The notes under the pieces: model-generated | The model's input: only the letters and a program-made list of their open reading frames with translations | Told to the model about the DNA's origin: nothing | Databases searched by the model: none | DNA from: Leptolyngbyaceae cyanobacterium | Lineage (GTDB): Bacteria; Cyanobacteriota; Cyanobacteriia; Phormidesmidales; Phormidesmidaceae | Length of the DNA stretch: 64,000 nucleotides | Assembly: GCA_965263355.1 (NCBI GenBank) | Contig: CBDHHL010000056.1 | Coordinates: 2,272,001-2,336,000, forward strand | Direction of reading: 5' to 3' | Shown: one piece after another, positions 12,916 to 63,514 of the stretch | How positions within the stretch are numbered: the stretch's first letter is position 1 | Layout: each line of letters starts with the position of its first letter | Translations under genes and position numbers: made by a program

Positions 12916-14400
12916 TTGGATTGTGTTGTAGGAACGTCTGTTGAGATGTCTAGTCTAAATTTGAGCCGCAAGGCAAGACGACGTAAATCGTCTGTCTGGG
13001 ATACCTATGCGCCGCCATTTGATCAAATGGCTAAGCGCTTTTTTGGCAGAAGCTTTTCCTGGGCTTGGCTAGCTTGTATACCTTTGGCACTCGTTATTGT
13101 TGCCACTTGGAATACAGCAGCCCATGCGCAGGAAGATGCCATCACTGCTGACAATGTTCAGTTTGTTTTAGATAACATCTGGGTGCTGGTCGCAGCTATC
13201 CTGGTGATTTTCATGAATGCTGGTTTCGGTATGTTAGAAACTGGATTCTGCCGCCAGAAGAACGCTGTTAATATTCTTTCCAAAAACTTAATCGTCTTCG
13301 CTTTAGCCACCTTATCCTTCTGGGCTTTTGGGTTTGGTTTCATGTTCAATGAAGCGACTCCTGTGATTGGTTTAGGCAATTTCTTTTTGTCTGGCTATTC
13401 CACTGATACCCCTGAGTTTGGAAATTTGACAGTCCCTGTGTTTTTCCTATTCCAGGCGGCGTTTGCAGGAACTGCAGCAACTATCGTTTCTGGTGCAGTT
13501 GCAGAGCGGATTAAGTTTATTGATTTCATCATCTTTAGCATTTTGCTAACAGCAATTTCTTATCCAATCACTGGTCACTGGGTATGGACTGGGACTGGTT
13601 GGCTAGGTGCAAACGTTGGCTTTTCTGACTTTGCTGGGTCTACTGTTGTGCACTCTGTCGGTGGTTGGGCCGCTCTGTGTGGTGCAGCCATCCTTGGCCC
13701 TCGCATTGGTAAATACCAAGACGGTCAAATCAATGCTATTCCGGGCCACAACATGAGTATTGCTACTCTTGGCTGTTTGATTCTGTGGATCGGCTGGTTT
13801 GGGTTTAACCCTGGCTCTGAGCTAGCAGCTGATGCAGCTGTACCTTACATTGCTGTAACCACTAACTTGGCAGCAGCAGCCGGTGGTGTAGCCGCCACTG
13901 TAACTGCTTGGATCATGAGCGGTAAGCCTGATCTATCCATGATCATCAACGGCATCTTGGCTGGTTTAGTTGGCATCACTGCTGGTTGTGCTGGCGCTAG
14001 CTTCTTTGGTGCAGTCATCATCGGCTTAGTAGCAGGTATACTCGTTGTTTTCTCTGTCGGTTTCTTTGACAGCATTAAGATCGATGACCCTGTCGGTGCC
14101 ATCTCTGTACACCTTGTTTGCGGTATTTGGGGCACACTTGCAGTTGGCCTATTCGATACGTCTTCTGGCTTGTTCTACGGTGGCGGTATCGGTCAGCTAA
14201 TTGCTCAGATTATCGGTATTATTGCCATTGGTCTGTTTACCGTTGTCTTCAGCGCTGTTGTTTGGACTATCCTCAAGTCTGCCTTTGGCCTACGCGTTTC
14301 TGCCGAGGAAGAACTCAAGGGTTTGGATATTGGTGAGCACGGAATGGAAGCTTATAGCGGTTTCCTCAAGGACACTAGCGATATGGGCGGTGTTGCCTAG
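12916..14400 (+). CDS. amt: Ammonium transporter (Amt family); start codon uncertain
   Basis: [42 protein letters not shown]. Confidence 0.93.
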
Positions 14401-19705: not shown

Positions 19706-22700
19706 TTACCAGACTTCGTCTTGGTCGCCCCATTCATCGTCGCTGTAACGTTGTGAGCTACTGCTGTTTTGTCGACGAACATTGCCAGCATAGTCTTGAG
19801 TAGGGGCATTGGCTGACTCACTCGGCTTGTCAGCCCAAGGATCGTCATCTATTATGGGCGCATTAGAATTCCAGTTAATGTCTGCCGCTCTGCCAACGTT
19901 AGCAGCATCTTCGGCGATGGGATAACCGGTTGTTGGTTGAGCTGGATATCCATCAATATTAGAGGGCTTGTAACGCTCTGAATTAGGCGGACTAACTGAC
20001 TCTCTCCCTGCAGAATCAGAGCCATAGCGCGCCTGCGCTCTAGTATCTTGACCATATGATGGTGTGGAACCTGGTTCTTGGCGATAACTACCTGCAGGCT
20101 GTCCGTAGGATTCTCGTCCGTAACTCTGTTGCTCACTCTGTTGATCGTAGTTGTCTCTTACGCTTCTGTCTCTGTAGGTGCCACCATCATAGGCTGCCTG
20201 ACGATCATAGTCGAAACCACGGTCATCGCCATCTTGATTCATCTGGCGATAACTACTTCGATTGTAGGCTTCTTGCCCATAATTGGATTGGCCATAGTCA
20301 GATGGGTTATACCTGGATTGGTTATAGCCCGTTGGCCCATACCTATCCTGAGCAGATTGATAACCATCGCTATCCTGCGATGGAGACTGATCATCGTAAG
20401 CGCGCGACCTGTAACGACCACCTTGATTAGTATCCTGTGTAGTTTGGTCATGCCGCTGGTTTTGATCATCGTAGCGCCCTTGATTAGAACGTCCTTGCTC
20501 AAATTGGTCCTGACGATATCCCTCTTGGTCATAGTATGAGCCCTGACCATAGCCATCTCGGTTGTAATTATCCGCTGCAGCATCATATCGACGACCTGAG
20601 CTGTTGTCATAACTACGACTGTCATAGCTGCTGCGGTTATCACCACGACTGTCATAGCTACGGCCATCGTAACTACGGTTATCATATCCCCCTCGGTTAT
20701 CGTAACCACCACGGGAAGTGTCGTAAGCTGAGCTACCACCACCTGGACGAGACACTGGTTGGTTCCAGCTATCATCCCAATCATCCCAACCACTACGATT
20801 ATCACGACGACCAGCAGACCAACTAGGGCTATCCCACTGACTTTGACCATTCCAGTCGTAATCACGACGATAGTAATCGTCGTCATCGTCAAAGGCTTTT
20901 TTAATGGTGTCGCCAATTTGGCTAAAAATATTGCCGTCGTCATTATCGGCGTCGTATAAATAGGCCTCACGATTCAGCTCATACAGTTCATCCTGCAGTT
21001 CAGACTGAATCATATCGACCATGCGCTCATCGTCACGTTTGAGAGCATCACGCAGATCTTGAATCAAATTATCAATGCGACGTTTGCGATCGCGAGCAAA
21101 TTGCAAACCAAAATCAATGGACACACTACGCATCGCCCGCTCCGCCTGGAAGGTAAGGGTCTCAGCCCGATTGCGCTTCTCAATGCGTTGCCGCTGCCCC
21201 CGGTCTACATCAGCAAATTCTTCAGCTTCCTTGAGCATCCGCTGGACATCGTCTTCGGATAGGTTAGACGCCTCTTGCACCGTAATACTTTGCTCACGAC
21301 CCGTGGTTTTATCCATGGCCGAGACTTGCAAAATACCATTGGCATCAATATCAAAAGACACCTGTATCTGTGGAATACCCCGTGGAGCTGGGGGAATGCC
21401 CATCAGCTTGAACCGCCCCAGGGATTTATTATCGATCCCCATTTCCCGCTCCCCCTGGATCACATGCACTTCCACAACCGTCTGATTATTTTCGGAGGTT
21501 GAGAAAACATCCGAGCGCCTTACAGGAATCGTCGTATTGCGAGGAATCACCTTTTTCATCACACCGCCAATGGTTTCTAACCCCAAAGACAAGGGCGTGA
21601 CATCTAAAAGCATAATGTCCTTCACTTCTTCAGTGAGGATACCGGATTGAATAGCAGCACCCACAGCAACCGCTTCATCGGGGTTAACGTTCTGGTTAGG
21701 CTCTTTACTCAGAACAGAGCGCACCAGCTGCTGCACCATGGGCATGCGACTAGAGCCGCCCACAAGAACCACCTCATCAATTTGCGAGGGAGACAGACGG
21801 GCATCATTCATTGCCTGTTGCAGGGGAGCCCGGAGACGACCAATCAGATCAGCACAGAGGGACTCAAAGTGCGATCGCGACAACTTTTTCTCAATATGCT
21901 TTGGCCCATCTGGAGTAGCTGTAATAAACGGCAGATTAACTTCCACCGTGGGCAGCCCTGACAGTTCAATTTTTGCCTTTTCAGCCGCTTCAGTTAATCG
22001 CTGTAGTGCCTGTCGGTCTCGCCGCAGATCAATCCCTTCCGTTTCTAAAAACTCATCTGCCAGCCAGTCAACTATTTTCTTGTCGAAATTGACACCGCCC
22101 AACTGAGTATCACCACTGGTAGAGCGCACTTCAAAGACACCATTGCGCACATCCAAGATAGAGACATCAAAGGTGCCACCCCCCAGGTCAAAGACCAAGA
22201 TAGTTTGATTGAACTGATGCTCCAGTCCGTAAGCTAATGCCGCTGCCGTCGGCTCGTTGATAATCCGTTTAACCTCTAGACCCGCAATCCGTCCTGCATC
22301 CCGCGTAGCCTGTCGTTGAGCATCATTAAAATAAGCAGGCACCGTAATTACAGCACCGGTCACAGACTGCCCGAGGTAACGACTTGCCTCTTCCGCCAGC
22401 TTACGCAGCACCATGGCCGATATTTCTTCAGGCGCAAAATCCTTATCTAGCCTAGGACAGCGAACTTTGATATCGCCCACATCATCCTTTCGCACAGTAT
22501 AGGGAACACGCTTTGACTCAGAACTAAGTTCTGTATATTTACGCCCCAGATAGCGCTTGACATTGTAAAAAGTATTTTGAGGATTGAGCACTGCCTGTCG
22601 CCGGGCCATTTGACCCACTAGGCGCTCACCCTCTTTGCTAAATGCTACATACGAAGGGGTAGTTCGCATCCCCTCCGTATTGGCGATGACCACCGGTTTG

Positions 22701-22765
22701 CCACCTTCGATGACTGAGACAACTGAGTTGGTAGTACCGAGGTCAATACCGACGACCTTACCCAT
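19706..22765 (-). CDS. dnaK: DnaK (cyanobacterial DnaK3 type) with very long low-complexity C-terminal tail
   Basis: [26 protein letters not shown], followed by ~390 aa rich in Y/D/G/R/S/Q. Confidence 0.93.
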
Positions 22766-22961: not shown

Positions 22962-23276
22962 CTAAACTCTTAGCAACCTGGGGCAACTGCATCGACCAGG
23001 AAACCCTGAAAGACCCCAAAAATCGTCATCATTATCACCAGAATCGTAAAGATAAGCTTCACGATTCAGTTCATATAGTTCATCTTGCAAATCGCATTGA
23101 ATTTCATCAAACAGGCCATCTTCTTGATTATCGAGGGTGTTTTGTAGAGCTTGAACCAATGTTTCAATGCGGCGTTTGCGATCTCGCGCAAACTGCAATC
23201 CAACGTCAATGGAAACACCGCGTATAATTCTCTCTGCATAGAATGCAAGCGCTTCAGCTGTGGCATACGTCAACAA
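22962..23276 (-). CDS. Stand-alone copy of the DnaK C-terminal helical lid (small CDS or pseudogene)
   Basis: [16 protein letters not shown] and [16 protein letters not shown] match dnaK sequence at about 20935-21166. Confidence 0.6.
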   Translation of the reverse strand: MLTYATAEALAFYAERIIRGVSIDVGLQFARDRKRRIETLVQALQNTLDNQEDGLFDEIQCDLQDELYELNREAYLYDSGDNDDDFWGLSGFPGRCSCPRLLRV

Positions 23277-23378: not shown

Positions 23379-23461
23379 GCGGATGTGGCGGAATTGGTAG
23401 ACGCGCTAGGTTTAGGTTCTAGTGTCTTCGTGACGTGAAGGTTCAAGTCCTTTCATCCGCA
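23379..23461 (+). tRNA. tRNA-Leu (anticodon TAG)
   Basis: GCGGATG acceptor stem pairs with CATCCGC-A; D loop AATTGGTAGAC; anticodon loop TTTAGGT; long variable arm; GTTCAA T loop. Confidence 0.93.
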
Positions 23462-33078: not shown

Positions 33079-35280
33079 CTAACCATCCAAGTCAGTTAGT
33101 TTATCGGCAACATCAGAAGCCTTATTGATACCTCGCTGACCAAGCTGACCAGCTTGGTCCTTAAGATTGCCAGCTTGTTGCTTAGCCTGATTAGCCATGT
33201 CGCTGGTCTTATCAGTGACAGAATCAGCAGTATTATTGACGTTATTGCGTACACGCTGCCAAAGAGACCTAGGCGCAGAAGTACTACCTTTTATAGCATT
33301 ACCAGCATCATCAGCCATCCCGCCAAGCTTACCAGTAACGGCATTGGCTCCACTTTGGACTGCATTACTAGCACTACCTAAACCACCTTTGAGGCCGCTG
33401 CCCCCCTGCTGAGCAGCTCCCTTAACAGTACCAAGACCGTCTTTAGCCGCGTCACCGACATTACCAAGACCATCTTTCACAGTGCCAAGACCGCCCCTAG
33501 CCGCATCACCGACATTACCAAGACCATCTTTCACAGTGCCAAGACCGCCCCTAGCCGCATCACCGACATTACCAAGGCCATCTTTCACAGTACCAAGACC
33601 GCCCCTAGCCGCATCACCGACATTACCAAGACCACCTTTCACAGTACCAAGACCGCCTTTAGCCGCATCACCGACATTACCAAGACCACCTTTCACAGTA
33701 CCAAGACCGCCCCTAGCCGCATCACCGACATTACCAAGACCACCTTTCACAGTGCCAAGACCGCCCCTAGCCGCATCGCTAACATTATCAAGGCCACCTT
33801 TAGCCGCATCACCTGTTTTTTTAGCAGCAGACCAGGCAGCACTACCACCAGCAGCAGTTCCTGCTGCGATACCAGCACCGGCTGCTTTCCCAACACCTGA
33901 CACACCACTAGCAACATTAGGCCCTTGAGCAGTGGCATAGGTTGCATCTTTGTCCTTACGACGAGCACCCCAGGCAACTAACCCCAAACAAGCTGCAGGA
34001 ACAATCAGCAGCCACCAGAGATTGGCACGGCTGATAGAAGACTGGGGACTAACGTCTCTCCCCTCTTGATTCGTTGCTGCTGCAACGTTACTAGCCGCAT
34101 CGCTTGCGGCGTCGGCAGCACCCTCGACCACATTACCGGCAGCGTCGGCAGCACCCTCGACCACATTACCGGCAGCGTCGGCAGCACCCTCGACTACATT
34201 ACCGGCAGCGTCGGCAGCACCTTCAACTACATTACCCGCAGCATCCGTTGCACCCTCGACTACATTACCTGCAACATCAACAGCACCTTCAACCACATTA
34301 CCGGCAGCATCCGTTGCACCCTCGACCACATTACCTGCAGCATCGGCAGCACCCTCGACTACATTACCCGCAGCATCGGCAGCACTCTGAACCGTATTAC
34401 TAGCGGCACTAACCACACCATCCAAGGGATTAGCAGCCTTCAACGCAGACTGCCCAGGCTCACCAGCGGCATAGCCTAAAAAGGCTGCTACGGCGGGAGA
34501 AGGCTCTCCTTTGTAGACAAAAGAAAAGGGCTGAGAGAAGGGATAACGAGGATCAGTAGGCAACGTTTTGTGCATCGACAAGATACGCACACCGGCCAGA
34601 TCCTCAACTTCACTAATCAGGCCATAGCTAATGCCATCGGCCCCTAATTCCTTGGCGATATCCTTAGTGCTATCGGTATTCAACTGTGAGGCACTACTCC
34701 CTGTAGCAAATTCAGCCGCCTGGAAAACAGGATAGGGTGCCAACGCCAGACGTGTATCACTAGTATCAGGGCGGTCTACCAGACGAATCGCTCCGCTAGG
34801 GCCCCCAACTTCCGACCAGTCAGTAATCTCACCCCGGAAAATCTTGGCAAATTGCTCGGTGGTTAAGCTCTTACTAAACGGATTATCCTCACCCACAATC
34901 ATCGCAATCTTAATGCGATTAACATCTACAGCAGACAGGCCCTGAGCCCGCTCATTTTCAGTTAGAGGCCGACTGATGGCAGCCAAGTCAGCATCACCAT
35001 TGATTAAAGCCTGAATAGCCTGATTCGCACCCACAGCATCCACATTCACTGCAGCACCATCAAACTTACCTTCAAAGTCGGCTTTAAGCGCATCACTGAT
35101 TAGAGTCATGGCATCGGAGCCACTACTGACTTGGAGACTCGTATCGCTAGGCACAGAGGTAGGCACTTCAAAGGCAGCGGGCAATGCCATCGTGGGACGA
35201 AAGAATGGCTGGCTAGGTACAATTACCGTCAGCAAAGCAACCGTAGCAGCCAAAGACAAAGTAGAGCAGGACTTAAGCAT
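33079..35280 (-). CDS. PstS/PBP-like substrate-binding protein with two internal repeat tracts and a central TM helix
   Basis: DLAAISRPL, IFRGEITDWSEVGG, DRPDTSDTR; 11-aa repeats; LWWLLIVP TM segment; 18-aa repeats. Confidence 0.7.
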   Translation of the reverse strand: MLKSCSTLSLAATVALLTVIVPSQPFFRPTMALPAAFEVPTSVPSDTSLQVSSGSDAMTLISDALKADFEGKFDGAAVNVDAVGANQAIQALINGDADLAAISRPLTENERAQGLSAVDVNRIKIAMIVGEDNPFSKSLTTEQFAKIFRGEITDWSEVGGPSGAIRLVDRPDTSDTRLALAPYPVFQAAEFATGSSASQLNTDSTKDIAKELGADGISYGLISEVEDLAGVRILSMHKTLPTDPRYPFSQPFSFVYKGEPSPAVAAFLGYAAGEPGQSALKAANPLDGVVSAASNTVQSAADAAGNVVEGAADAAGNVVEGATDAAGNVVEGAVDVAGNVVEGATDAAGNVVEGAADAAGNVVEGAADAAGNVVEGAADAAGNVVEGAADAASDAASNVAAATNQEGRDVSPQSSISRANLWWLLIVPAACLGLVAWGARRKDKDATYATAQGPNVASGVSGVGKAAGAGIAAGTAAGGSAAWSAAKKTGDAAKGGLDNVSDAARGGLGTVKGGLGNVGDAARGGLGTVKGGLGNVGDAAKGGLGTVKGGLGNVGDAARGGLGTVKDGLGNVGDAARGGLGTVKDGLGNVGDAARGGLGTVKDGLGNVGDAAKDGLGTVKGAAQQGGSGLKGGLGSASNAVQSGANAVTGKLGGMADDAGNAIKGSTSAPRSLWQRVRNNVNNTADSVTDKTSDMANQAKQQAGNLKDQAGQLGQRGINKASDVADKLTDLDG
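33430..33810 (-). repeat. 54-bp coding tandem repeat (GGLGTVKxGLGNVGDAAR), about 6-7 copies
   Basis: Visible in both DNA and translation. Confidence 0.85.
34100..34390 (-). repeat. 33-bp coding tandem repeat (AADAAGNVVEG), about 8-9 copies
   Basis: Unit gcagcaccctcgaccacattaccggcagcgtcg. Confidence 0.85.
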
Positions 35281-56188: not shown

Positions 56189-57610
56189 TTAGCAATCGTA
56201 GTAGAGCGCTAACTCATAGGGGTGAGGACGAATATCCATGGGGATAACTTCCGTATCAAGCTTGTAGGAAATCCAGTTTTGGATAAAGTCTTCTGTGAAG
56301 ACTCCCCCTTGAGTCAAAAATTCATGATCAGTTTCTAATGCCGATAATGCTTCCTTCAAAGACCCTGGAGTGGATGCAATCTTAGCCAACTCTTCAGGGC
56401 TAAGCTCATAGATATCTTGATCAATAGGAGCAGGGGGCTCAATCTGATTCTTAATTCCATCGATACCAGCACAAAGCATTGCCGCAAAGGCCAGGTAAGG
56501 ATTAGATGTTGGATCAGGACAGCGGAACTCTAAACGCTTAGCCTTAGGACTATCACCAGACAGGGGAATCCGAATTGCAGCAGAACGGTTACCATTGGAG
56601 TACACCAAGTTAACAGGTGCCTCAAAACCAGGCACTAAACGCTTATAAGAATTTGTACTGGGATTGGAAAATGCTAGTACTGCAGGTGCATGCTTAAGTA
56701 GGCCACCAATATACCAAGTGGCTAACTGACTGAGGCCTGCATACATATCACCCGCCATTAATGGTTGTCCATCCTTCCAAATGGATTGGTGAGTGTGCAT
56801 CCCAGAACCGTTGTCCTCAAACAAAGGTTTCGGCATAAAGGTAACAGTCTTGCCGTACTTTTTCGCGACATTCTTGATGCAGTACTTGTAGGTCATCAAC
56901 CAGTCAGCTGCTTGGATCATTTCCCCAAAGCGGAAACCTAGTTCACACTGACCACCCGTTGCCACCTCATGGTGATGCTTCTCAATGGGCACACCACAAG
57001 CTGCCATAGTCAATAGCATCTCAGTCCGCATGTCTTGGGAAGTGTCGGTAGGAGACACTGGGAAATACCCGCCCTTATAAGCAGGCTTATATCCTAAGTT
57101 ACCGCCCTCTTCTTCACGCCCCGTATTCCAACGGCCTTCAACGGTGTCTACATGGTAGTAGCTGGCATTGGACGTGGTATCAAAGCGAACATCATCAAAA
57201 ATAAAGAACTCAGCTTCAGGGCCAAAATAAGCGGTGTCACCTATGCCGCTGGCCTTTAGATAATCCAATGCTTTTTGAGCAATTACACGGGGACAACGGT
57301 CGTACCACTCGCCAGTACGTGGCTCCTTAATCGAGCAAACCAAACTTAGGGTAGGCTCCTTCATAAAGGGATCAATCCAAGCCGTCGCCGGGTCAGGCAC
57401 CATCGACATGTCAGACTCGTTAATGGCCTTCCACCCACGGATACTTGAGCCATCAAATGCCACTCCATCGGTAAAGCTACTTTCATCAATCTGGCTGCGA
57501 TGCACCGTGAGGTGTTGCCAAATACCAGGCAAATCGATGAACTTCAGATCAATCATCTGGATGTCTTGATCGTTGATCATCTGCAAAACTTCTGCGGCAG
57601 TTTGAGCCAT
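56189..57610 (-). CDS. glnA: Glutamine synthetase type I
   Basis: [42 protein letters not shown]. Confidence 0.97.
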
Positions 57611-57942
57611 GGATTACTCCTTATATATGCATTCACTAAAGCCGTCTTTGAACTTCTTGAGGGAAATGTAGGCTTTGCAGTACGGACAGGCCAACACGTT
57701 TAACGGCCAAAACATTAAACAATGAGTGAGACCGAAAATGTGTACCTATTAGAAATTTTCTATATTCCTAAGTAGCGGCAAGCATATTCGCTCAACTCGG
57801 GCCACCTGACATGGCAAACAGAGAACTTCACTCATCCCCATACAACCCTTGAAACCGGCTAAGATTCAAAGGCTAGCCAGACCATTCAACAAAGCACTGC
57901 GTTTGAGTAAACATCAGTATTGACTCTGCCTAGGCTGGGATA

Positions 57943-57985
57943 ATCCTAGGAACAGTAATAACGAGCGATTGTATCTCTTGTTACA
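57943..57985 (-). promoter_or_regulatory. Canonical NtcA-activated (class II) glnA promoter
   Basis: GTA-N8-TAC at 57971-57984, then a 22-nt spacer and TAGGAT (TAN3T) at 57943-57948 on the minus strand. Confidence 0.85.
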
Positions 57986-58392
57986 AATTCAGGTTTTCTC
58001 TACATGCTGGCGGGGCAATTCAGACAACTCCTTCCACCTGAGGTGCAACAAACAATTGTTGCGAAACATTGCACATTGTAAAAAATAAGTAGCCCAATCC
58101 CTGTCTCGCTATGGTGTTTTGTCTGCTGTTTAATCCACCGTGGTAAACTAAGTTCTGGTATTTGAGTGTTGATAAGCGTTGTCGCTGAACGAGTTTCAGG
58201 ATTTATATGGCAGCGGCAAGACACTTGAAAAATACTTAGACAAGCAGCCAGATAGCTCTTGCGTTTGTTCTCATATTTAGTTCATTCCAATGGCTGATCA
58301 ATGCTTGAACAAGGACTTTCACCCCTAGTTTGGTTATAAGTTCCTACTTGATTTTTTGAGTCGCACATTAATCGCATCGGGAGAAAGGTTTC

Positions 58393-58902
58393 ATGCGGGA
58401 TACGGTGACGGGTTTAATTAGCACCTACGACATCACAGGTCGTTACCTCGATCGCGACGCCATCGCTTCTCTAAAGTCTTATTTTGAGAGTGGTGCTGAT
58501 CGAGTTAAAGCTGCAGCCTATGTCAGTGCCAATGCATCTAGCTTAGTAAAAGCTACTGCTACTGCGTTATATGAGCGAGTGCCTGAATTACTTCGTCCGG
58601 GGGGCAACTCCTACACCACGCGGCGCTATGCAGCGTGCCTACGAGATTTGGATTACTACCTGCGCTATAGCAGCTATGCCCTTGTAGCAGGCAATTGTGA
58701 TGTTCTGACAGAGCGGGTACTCAATGGTCTACGTGAAACCTATAATTCTTTGGAAGTGCCTGTGGGACCCACAGTTATTGCCATACAGATTATGAAGGAT
58801 GTCCTGAAAGAGCAGCTAGCGGCCCAAGGAATTGGGGACACTACATTTGTAGATGCGCCGTTTGACCATCTTGCCCGTGAACTAGGCGAAGTCAGTGTGT
58901 AA
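58393..58902 (+). CDS. apcF: Allophycocyanin beta-18 subunit
   Basis: MRDTVT...YLDRDAI, RPGGNSYTTRRYAACLRDLDYYLRY; divergent from glnA. Confidence 0.9.
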   Translation: MRDTVTGLISTYDITGRYLDRDAIASLKSYFESGADRVKAAAYVSANASSLVKATATALYERVPELLRPGGNSYTTRRYAACLRDLDYYLRYSSYALVAGNCDVLTERVLNGLRETYNSLEVPVGPTVIAIQIMKDVLKEQLAAQGIGDTTFVDAPFDHLARELGEVSV

Positions 58903-61340: not shown

Positions 61341-62402
61341 CTAACCTTGCCGACCGGTACGTTCTAGACCTAATTGAATCAACTGATCCACAAGCTGAGC
61401 AAACTCAATCCCAGACGCTTGCCATAGCATAGGATACATACTAGTCGCAGTGAATCCTGGAAAAGTATTGATTTCATTGATGAGTACTTCGCCAGTACTC
61501 TCTACATAGAAAAAATCTACCCGTGACAAACCAGCCCCATCAATGGCTTGAAATGCTTGAACAGCCTGCTCCTGAATAGTGGTTACCACATCACTTGGCA
61601 GCGGTGCCGGAATCGCTAAATCGGCTTGACCACTGGTGTACTTGGTCTCGTAGTCATAGAAATCGGCATCAAAGCTAATTTCACCAATGACTGATGCCTT
61701 CGGATTGTCATTGCCCAGAATTGCACATTCCACTTCACGGGCAATGACACCAGCTTCCACAATAATGCGGCGATCATAACTGGCGGCACTATCAAGGGCT
61801 GCCTCTAGTTCTTGACGATCCTTAGCTTTGGCAATACCTACAGATGAGCCCAAGTTAGCAGGTTTTACAAAGCATGGATAGCCGAGGTTATCTTCTATCT
61901 GATCGCATAGCTTCGGAAAAACGCAGGGATTGGAATAGACTTGCGATCGCAACACCTCGATATAGTTCACCTGGGGCAATCCCACCTGTGCAAACGCAGA
62001 CTTCATCGCCAGCTTATCCATACCCACTGCCGCAGCCAAGACGCCACAGCCCACATAGGGAACCTGCATCAGCTCAAACAGTCCCTGAATCGTTCCATCC
62101 TCACCATTGGGTCCATGGAGCACAGGGAACCAGATATCCACATCAGTTGCTAACTTCGGTAGGCGATCGATAAGTGATATTTCATCCGTCCCAATCACTA
62201 ATGGCTTACCGGAAGTCAATACATCCTGGGCATCCATAACCCACACACCATCCTTACGGATATAAACGGGTAGGATTTCATACTTCTCAAAATTCCCCTT
62301 GAGGCTTAACCCATGGGCAATCGCCTGGGCCGAACAAATAGATACCTCATGCTCTCCAGAACAACCACCAAACAATAAGCCTACGCGCATTTTTGCCATC
62401 AA
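61341..62402 (-). CDS. ddl: D-alanine-D-alanine ligase
   Basis: [38 protein letters not shown]. Confidence 0.95.
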
Positions 62403-62590
62403 GTCGGCCCCTTTTTACCTAAAAAATAAATTAATGCTGCTTTAGAGACACAACCAAGTCAACGTTCCCCTTGGGGCGTATTGGAGCATCTACTCCATAA
62501 GTAAAAAGCAACACTAAAAAGAATATTAAGAGGTTAACCGATCACAGGCTTAATCTATTCATCACAGGAGTTCTCAAAAGATTACTGGGC

Positions 62591-62649
62591 AAAAAAAACT
62601 CCTAAGCCCTAAAAGGGCTCAGGAGTCAGACATCAGGGTGCATCTACCA
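62591..62649 (-). ncRNA. NsiR1-like sRNA, copy A
   Basis: TGGTAGATGCACCCTGATGTCTGA, then terminator CTCCTGAGCCC-TTTTA-GGGCTTAGGAG-T8; TCCGGA at 62679-62684. Confidence 0.65.
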
Positions 62650-62767
62650 GCTAACTGTCCACGGCATTCACCCTTACTTCCGGACAGAACAAAAATTAGC
62701 ATGCACATTCTCATAATCCTTTATTTGACTCAACGACTGGACTCCAAATATGACCCTAAAAATTTTG

Positions 62768-62826
62768 AAAAAAAACTCCTAAGCCCTAAAAGGGCTCAGG
62801 AGTCAGACATCAGGGTGCATCTACCA
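62768..62826 (-). ncRNA. NsiR1-like sRNA, copy B
   Basis: Same core and terminator as copy A; TCCGGA at 62856-62861. Confidence 0.65.
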
Positions 62827-62943
62827 GCTAACTGTCCACGGCATTCACCCCTACTTCCGGACAGAACAAAAATTAGCGTGCACATTCTCACAATCCTTTA
62901 TTTGACTCAACGATTGACTCCAAATATGGCCCTAAAAATTTTG

Positions 62944-63002
62944 AAAAAAAACTCCTAAGCCCTAAAAGGACCCAGGAGTCAGACATCAGGGTGCATCTAC
63001 CA
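62944..63002 (-). ncRNA. NsiR1-like sRNA, copy C
   Basis: Same core; terminator has two substitutions that keep pairing as G-U; TCCGGA at 63032-63037. Confidence 0.65.
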
Positions 63003-63139
63003 GCTAACTGTCCACGGCATTCACCCCTACTTCCGGACAGAACAAAAAATCAACTGGCATTCAATCATTGGCATCACTTACCAAAAGAAAGCATCAAGAT
63101 TTTAGAGACCCCGTGAAAAAAACAACATGACCAGAGATA

Positions 63140-63514
63140 ATGCCATTGCACCCTCGACCTTACTCAGGATCTGTGAAATATTTTTTCTTGTCCGACGGCT
63201 GGACCACTGGCAGAGTATGGGAGTTTGGCGGCCTATGGAATGAAATCGCCTGGCAGCGCAAACCAATCATTAAACAGTTAAGGCTTTACATCGAAGAAGC
63301 CACCGAAAAGTTATGGCTATATCAAGTTGAAGACGACGTCTTAATGGTCGAAGTTCGGCCTGAAGATGACACGGCGATCCCCATTGGCCAAGTTGTTTTA
63401 AAGCGACTGATAACCGCTGATCAAGTGATCGAAAAGCTATGTGAAAGTAGTCATACTGCTATCACTGCTAACTTAGAGGCTAACCTTCCTAAGCAAGCTA
63501 GTTATCCCTTATAG
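63140..63514 (+). CDS. Conserved cyanobacterial hypothetical protein
   Basis: KYFFLSDGWTTGRVWEFGGLW ... IGQVVLKRLI; start may be the GTG at VKYFF. Confidence 0.6.
   Translation: MPLHPRPYSGSVKYFFLSDGWTTGRVWEFGGLWNEIAWQRKPIIKQLRLYIEEATEKLWLYQVEDDVLMVEVRPEDDTAIPIGQVVLKRLITADQVIEKLCESSHTAITANLEANLPKQASYPL

Follow-up and report, generated by a model that had tools for sequence, protein, structure and literature searches.

The window analysed here, a stretch of 64,000 nucleotides from a Leptolyngbyaceae cyanobacterium, carries three tandem copies of a small RNA on the minus strand between ddl (61341..62402, minus strand; D-alanine-D-alanine ligase, Pfam PF07478 and PF01820) and the divergent gene of a conserved cyanobacterial hypothetical protein of 124 aa (63140..63514, plus strand), which is syntenic in relatives. 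For the latter protein, no match was found in Pfam or NCBIfam, and its Atlas clusters are all 'hypothetical'. The three copies gave full-length matches to the Rfam NsiR1 model (RF02399), each covering model positions 1-60 of 60 with a score well over the gathering cut-off of 39: copy 1, the distal one (62944..63002, 59 nt, 56.1 bits), copy 2 (62768..62826, 59 nt, 58.2 bits) and copy 3, adjoining ddl (62591..62649, 58.2 bits). NsiR1 matches in the 64-kb window were confined to these copies, and membership of the RNAs in the NsiR1 family is close to certain.

Copies 2 and 3 are identical in RNA sequence. Copy 1 differs from them by two substitutions, both located in the terminator stem, which is kept. 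In the predicted fold, a weak 5′ hairpin is followed by a core that is largely open and then by the terminator, a 14-bp stem and U-run (minus strand, 62944-62980 in copy 1 and 62768-62804 in copy 2); tested on copy 2, this fold had a z of −4.9 and was matched by none of 200 shuffles. The direct repeats are spaced by 177 and 176 bp, and the distal unit has about 105 bp (62944-63048) in common with the others and is divergent beyond that, i.e. the array consists of two full units and one partial unit. A preliminary description of the locus had recognised NsiR1 from its core and proposed a terminator and a transcript of about 59 nt for each copy, which agrees with the Rfam matches, the folded stem and the U-run, all read from sequence. 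Its spacing of 176-177 bp also stands, but the third full unit does not, and the hairpin given as 11 bp was measured at 14 bp. The pieces joining the copies were present in contigs of run X1, possibly the window's own source, in which the depth of the repeat piece (24.5 versus about 9 for the flanks, approximately 2.7-fold) fits three copies.

The PNPase encoded in the window is 92% identical to those of Leptothoe spongobia (G001) and G002 and 91% identical to that of G136, compared with 79-83% for other thin filaments and 74-75% for Nostoc-type and Microcoleus proteins. In the PNPase and Ddl trees the host was grouped with G001 and G002 at 100/100, and G136 was also in a 100/100 group. By these identities and trees, the host is placed outside the heterocystous Nostocales and inside the Leptothoe clade, in agreement with its first characterization as non-heterocystous-looking. 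The members of this clade are filaments without heterocysts. A nifD match was present in G136, and none was found in G001. G001 has HetR and, of the HetZ family, only the hetZ′ paralogue; G002 has HetR, HetZ and HetZ′, and no HetP-family match was found there.

G001 shares the gene order of the window (tolC-like gene, hypothetical gene, NsiR1, ddl), and a single NsiR1 copy lies between the hypothetical gene and ddl in G002, so that the copy number at this site is one in G002, two in G001 and three in the window. Among the matches listed, 9 of 121 loci lie directly upstream of ddl on the same strand, to which G001 and G002 are added. Judged from gene order, the ddl position is a conserved synteny, apparently one old site among several, and local tandem duplication at this site between the hypothetical gene and ddl is the best explanation of the triplication. 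The array lies away from hetF, as initially described: the Nostoc-type arrangement with divergent hetF and a cis-antisense copy is absent here, and hetF is located elsewhere than the ddl-linked NsiR1 in both G001 and G002.

Past the last terminator, an extended −10-like motif of the TGTGATA type was seen by eye at 62536..62546 (minus strand). The motif precedes ddl in most of the ddl-linked relatives inspected, the window version differing by one base, and it is probably ddl's own promoter. Pairing of the window RNA with the ddl start (−9.8 kcal/mol) and with the start of the hypothetical gene was not above background, and both genes were rejected as NsiR1 targets. A small hairpin in the ddl leader (about 62480-62497, minus strand), the loop of which resembles the NsiR1 5′ hairpin, was treated as a chance likeness, none being seen in G001 or G002.

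Several other features of the window, all but the last named from likeness, deserve mention: a DnaK-like ORF (1019 aa; 19706-22765, minus strand) extended at its C-terminus by a long stretch rich in Tyr, Gly, Asp and Gln, with a short ORF next to it that is similar to part of the C-terminal domain (22962-23276, minus strand), a phosphate-binding-like protein with long tandem 11-residue repeats (33079-35280, minus strand), an ammonium-transporter-like gene (12916-14400), the divergent pair of glnA and an apcF-like gene (56189-58902, about 4 kb from the array) and a tRNA (23379-23461).

Predicted promoters of the array

A predicted σHetZ (DIF1) promoter lies on the minus strand ahead of each copy, at 63011..63037 for copy 1 (−35 TCCGGA, 17-nt spacer, −10 TGGA) and, by pattern match to the consensus of PMC13342950, at 62835..62861 for copy 2 and 62658..62684 for copy 3. 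The layout TCCGGA-N17-TGGA-N8-T, of which the last T is the predicted start, was found in 3/3 copies, and TCCGGA begins 35 nt ahead of the predicted 5′ end in each of them, as the estimate of 30-35 nt upstream of the core had anticipated. The pattern TCCGGA-N16/17-TGNA occurs five times in the window, always inside the array, compared with an expected 0.79; none of 100 shuffles reached five. The promoters had originally been taken for HetR-dependent DIF1 promoters. The DIF1 type was right, but according to the available text of PMC13342950 such promoters are read directly by the sigma factor HetZ, not by HetR, and the three promoters fit the σHetZ consensus published there. A HetZ-dependent ChIP peak over the nsiR1 array is given in the part of the supplement of that paper at hand.

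Two points complicate this assignment. In one dataset row, expression of nsiR1 is marked as 'up' when hetZ is mutated; this counts against the σHetZ model and might be explained by σHetZ′. The base at −11 is G in the array promoters and also in Leptothoe relatives, and the available text of PMC13342950 does not have G among the −11 substitutions reported active in vitro for Anabaena σHetZ; this G may weaken the array promoters. On balance, σHetZ-type transcription of the array copies is very probable. At copies 2 and 3, the palindrome TCCGGA is in addition part of a plus-strand pattern of the σHetZ type (N17-TGCA; 62679-62705 and 62856-62882), absent at copy 1, which would transcribe antisense into the neighbouring copy.

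Distribution of the NsiR1 family and a sibling class

Co-occurrence was examined in an even sample of 151 cyanobacterial genomes, of which 83 had a match to NsiR1, 82 to HetR, 84 to the HetZ family and 46 to nifD; the genomes are related, and kinship inflates these tables. The HetZ-family genomes are all 83 NsiR1 genomes plus G057. NsiR1 was thus present in 83/84 HetZ-family and 81/82 HetR genomes, with an agreement of 150/151 for the HetZ family and 148/151 for HetR (both 81, NsiR1 only 2, HetR only 1, neither 67). No such association was seen for nifD (both 29, NsiR1 only 54, nifD only 17, neither 51), and a link of NsiR1 to nitrogen fixation was rejected. By our proxy, a HetR 88-90% identical to a Nostoc protein (the next being 84%) together with shortened nifD matches, no more than 3 of the 82 genomes with HetR appear to be heterocystous. 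The earlier suggestion of an ancestral circuit, older and wider than heterocysts, is supported by the way NsiR1 tracks HetR and the HetZ family across the sample.

The exact core 17-mer was found at 121 loci at least, mostly in non-heterocystous filaments by title, two non-cyanobacterial matches without promoter or terminator being left out. With at most one mismatch, the DIF1 hexamer lies at −34 to −36 in 82/84 copies that we grouped with the Nostocales from titles and sequence likeness and in 118/119 of the others. Among the matches listed, 18 of the 80 loci with long flanks are divergent from hetF, and 8 of these 18 read as not Nostocales; other loci adjoin cobM and varied genes. Five non-heterocystous relatives have 3-7 NsiR1 matches each at several sites, and about 12 copies stand in tandem in Microcoleus G157. 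The hetF-linked loci outside the Nostocales and the tandem copies in G157 imply that heterocyst-formers share both tandem arrays and the hetF link with other lineages. In 5/5 genomes checked, the contig carrying hetF, or at least the place of the gene on it, had no NsiR1 match.

Some individual cases stand out. A DIF1-class copy divergent from cobM, outside the hetF array, recurs in both non-heterocystous and Nostoc-type genomes (L242, L263, L010, L021, L048, L079, L136). G012 (L157, L173, L179) has NsiR1 and the hetZ′ paralogue alone, with no HetR match; in G057 (L154, L175, L180, L184), HetR and HetZ are present, a hetZ′ match is lacking and all the RNAs belong to the HetR-box class described below. 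The genomes with HetZ′ alone (G001 and G012) carry DIF1-class copies, and the one with HetZ alone (G057) HetR-box-class RNAs only; HetZ′ as the specific driver was rejected, as this concerns three genomes only, the assemblies of which may be incomplete.

NsiR1 has been described as heterocyst-specific, with hetF and alr3234 as targets, in the sections available of PMC9045159, PMC11797042 and PMC6596454. Its occurrence outside heterocyst-formers is not new: the portion of Table S3 of PMC4734099 at hand lists homologs in 38 of 89 genomes, 27 heterocystous and 11 not, the latter including by column count Leptolyngbya PCC 7375 and PCC 6406, and RNA162 of Limnospira indica is discussed as a homolog in the accessible text of PMC8400943. 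These homologs belong to the same family in filamentous cyanobacteria without heterocysts; the parts of the two sources at hand give presence or annotation only, without promoters, copy structure, co-occurrence or targets. Of the preliminary claim of a multicopy NsiR1 homolog in a new context, the family and the non-hetF site hold, and the presence in a non-heterocystous host had already been tabulated (PMC4734099). As far as the available descriptions go, the window RNAs share with NsiR1 of Nostoc/Anabaena sp. PCC 7120 the length of about 60 nt, the 5′ core, the intrinsic terminator, a DIF1 promoter per copy and the tandem direct repeats, but there are three copies instead of twelve, located beside ddl without a cis-antisense copy instead of divergent from hetF. 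The lineage of the window, unlike PCC 7120, is without heterocysts, and the conserved targets predicted below are hetZ, hetZ′ and patU, in contrast to hetF and alr3234 in the available accounts of PCC 7120.

Among weak Rfam hits, the NsiR1 core and terminator were found behind a different promoter, composed of a GGG-N5-CCC palindrome and a housekeeping-type −10 (L186, L202, L207-L236, L238, L256, L268; for example near 49770 on contig C50 of G002). In the text seen of PMC4192349, GGG-N5-CCC is the published requirement for HetR binding, and we infer that HetR may bind at the palindrome of this sibling class. The pattern was present in 71/151 genomes and in 0/67 of those without a HetZ-family gene, and a reversed-pattern control gave 0; four of the pattern rows are copies of the DIF1 class, from genomes with a true match as well. 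Many members score under the Rfam NsiR1 cut-off. Upstream, gatB is the commonest neighbour among the loci examined (17), with ffh (11) or argJ (6) on the downstream side. The class is also present in Nostocales-type genomes, and none was found in G001 or in the window. The gatB-linked sibling was absent among the sRNAs in the part of Table S3 of PMC4734099 at hand, which has one core match, and no gatB entry was recognised in the HetR ChIP table, where most entries are locus tags. Literature searches, judged mostly by titles and abstracts, returned no report of it; the primary NsiR1 papers of 2010 and 2020 could describe it. Two further NsiR1-like RNAs (L204 and L205) have neither promoter class and carry CTGCAG near −35.

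Pairing of the core with start regions

Since HetP-family genes occur in only 27/151 genomes, genes co-occurring with NsiR1 were taken as target candidates; they were chosen by hand rather than by a genome-wide search and were read in other cyanobacterial genomes. The 18-nt invariant core was paired with their start regions and with a background of 508 starts (median −9.4, 5th percentile −15.1 kcal/mol). In the first set, 16/23 hetZ′, 13/22 hetZ, 9/21 patU and 0/18 hetR starts were at or below the 5th percentile, after one duplicate hetZ, two loci without a patU junction and two hetR without a start in range had been dropped or merged, and with the hetZ′ starts picked after the sites had been seen. 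The observed mean was reached by 0/60 shuffled cores for each of hetZ′, hetZ and patU and by 31/60 for hetR. In a further set of 20 genomes per gene, with starts assigned by a fixed rule and one row lost per set, the fractions were 13/19 for hetZ′, 9/19 for hetZ and 10/19 for patU, with 0/100 shuffles each; this set includes some close relatives of first-set genomes. Because the genomes are related, the p-values are not to be taken as probabilities. The antisense strands of the further-set sites scored near background.

The site of hetZ′, which is alr0202 in PCC 7120, has the form GTGCA-(TC or CT, or a longer variant)-ACC and lies immediately before the start; its middle varies and yet pairing is kept with a bulge. 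The hetZ site is of the type CATCAGGG...ATCTGCC and covers the ribosome-binding site. Background starts with a ribosome-binding motif paired far more weakly (median −10.4). The patU site is a partial core complement at the hetZ-patU junction right ahead of the patU ATG; it doubles as a promoter spacer, often encodes HetZ C-terminal codons and lies outside the transcript from that promoter. A mirror test of G-U tolerance, informative for hetZ only, was negative in 18/22 and 16/19 hetZ sites, meaning that G-U-compatible changes are favoured; hetZ′ gave a neutral outcome in either set, and patU a neutral one in the first set and a weak one in the second. About half of the patU sites and 10/19 of the held-out hetZ sites were no better than background.

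The window RNA itself was paired with Leptothoe-clade sites, where the observed values were reached by 4 of 300 shuffles for hetZ′, 0-2 for hetR and 3 and 20 for patU; pairing with the hetZ start was at chance level (113 and 146 of 300). The hetP-like start of G001 gave 0/300 shuffles. As a positive control, two Nostocales hetP-family starts, one of which begins Met-Tyr like alr3234, paired with the core (0/200 shuffles). Only a few of the 34 HetP-family starts examined did so, and this, with the occurrence of the family in 27/151 genomes, led us to reject it as a universal target. A hetF start site was not among the best pairings. hetR was rejected as a general target on its 0/18 starts below the background 5th percentile, and a site in its coding region was weak (1/25 shuffles). 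In the Leptothoe clade (L148, L149, L354), a near-full core complement lies before an upstream hetR start codon, which is not general elsewhere.

In both sets, then, hetZ, hetZ′ and patU have start regions complementary to the invariant 5′ core, which hetR in general has not; the prediction is that NsiR1 acts back on its own sigma/anti-sigma module. From these complementarities, NsiR1 likely pairs in vivo with at least one of the three mRNAs. Literature searches, again mostly at the level of titles and abstracts, showed no such pairing; the primary papers of 2010 and 2020 could contain such predictions.

A possible feedback arm and its rivals

The reading that we favour, and hold to be fairly probable, is that NsiR1 made by σHetZ/HetZ′ is a feedback arm of the HetR/σHetZ/PatU switch acting through hetZ, hetZ′ and patU. 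σHetZ or its paralogue σHetZ′ would transcribe each copy as a 59-nt RNA, the unpaired 5′ core of which would act in trans by base-pairing around the translation starts of hetZ, hetZ′ and patU (the anti-sigma) and, in Leptothoe-clade genomes, additionally at the site before hetR. Covering of the start sites would most likely lower translation, so that NsiR1 would damp or time the switch and set its threshold, additional copies giving a higher dose. The net sign of regulation may not be the same in every lineage. According to the available part of PMC9045159, overexpressing NsiR1 in Nostoc promotes differentiation and hastens commitment, which fits repression of patU better than repression of hetZ.

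It is unlikely that the σHetZ-driven copies act mainly on the Nostoc targets (the hetP-like gene and hetF) or on others and that the hetZ, hetZ′ and patU motifs are kept for a DNA-binding protein, ribosome binding or codons. The strong pairing of the window RNA with the G001 hetP-like start speaks for this, as do the mostly Watson-Crick, strand-neutral hetZ′ motif and the purine-rich ribosome-binding sequence within the hetZ site. However, HetP-family genes are too restricted and their starts mostly unpaired, hetF is apart from NsiR1 in all five genomes checked, other starts with ribosome-binding motifs pair far more weakly, and variable spacing such as that within the hetZ′ motif is more readily understood as an RNA bulge than as a DNA site for a protein. 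With hetP-family genes in 27/151 genomes and hetF often not adjacent, the two validated targets cannot explain a core invariant in 83 genomes. Titrating RNAs typically occur as multiple dispersed copies, and the invariant 5′ end could be a protein-binding element through which the numerous copies soak up an RNA-binding protein, for instance PatR or PatU3. In the text available of PMC11797042, NsiR1 is among the RNAs bound by PatR in CLIP-seq, and RNA binding in vivo is given for PatU3. We regard this as quite improbable, as PatR homologs are reported across cyanobacteria in the source text at hand whereas NsiR1 is confined to HetZ-family genomes, and the same core is the predicted pairing seed for alr3234-like starts; base pairing and protein binding are, moreover, compatible.

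The position and number of the copies invite two narrower explanations. Read-through from three σHetZ promoters could act in cis on ddl and tie peptidoglycan precursor synthesis to the developmental circuit, which would agree with the recurrence of the same-strand ddl-upstream position. The strong terminator between each promoter and ddl, the conserved promoter-like motif of ddl's own, its unpaired start and the 3-7 matches at several unrelated sites in relatives make this very unlikely, and the wall or septum control through ddl advanced in the preliminary description is not supported. Alternatively, the triplication could be a neutral accident with one or more copies weak or silent, as the series of one, two and three copies at the ddl site and the possibly weakening −11 G might suggest. 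But promoters and terminators are intact in 3/3 copies, the changes in copy 1 keep the stem, and copies in tandem have arisen repeatedly, reaching about 12 in G157; this explanation, which is scarcely probable, covers only copy number and not the function of the family.

The feedback reading can be widened to the sibling class. NsiR1 might be the RNA arm of a pre-heterocyst switch, in which two sibling classes with one seed converge on hetZ, hetZ′ and patU (and on hetR in Leptothoe), a tentative proposal that we rate slightly below even. One class would be made by σHetZ/HetZ′ and the other from the housekeeping-type promoter with the HetR box, HetR and σHetZ each tuning the gain of the circuit. 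σE with RybB/MicA and the Vibrio Qrr siblings are conserved-seed sRNAs made by a regulator and damping its pathway. This is an analogy only, with no sequence relation to NsiR1, and unlike in those systems the predicted targets of the window NsiR1 are the sigma-factor and anti-sigma mRNAs themselves. The σHetZ/σHetZ′/PatU circuit of PMC13342950, the promoter consensus of which fits all three window units, is presented without a post-transcriptional arm, and NsiR1 is not mentioned in its main text as available (0 occurrences).

Taken by itself, the window locus is an ordinary family member, and its value lies at the level of the family, in the predicted feedback pairing with hetZ, hetZ′ and patU and in the HetR-box sibling class. 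The prediction names the exact seed and target positions for standard reporter tests. If the pairing is true, it would supply a post-transcriptional loop that the best-studied circuit of bacterial patterning has been missing, in Nostoc too. The role of HetR and HetZ in filamentous cyanobacteria without heterocysts has been called a mystery (PMC11298460, in the part available). The nsiR1 promoter is a ready reporter for tractable strains, Leptolyngbya BL0902 for example, and on the wider reading with two classes it would mark the cells or conditions in which this still unexplained circuit fires in such filaments.
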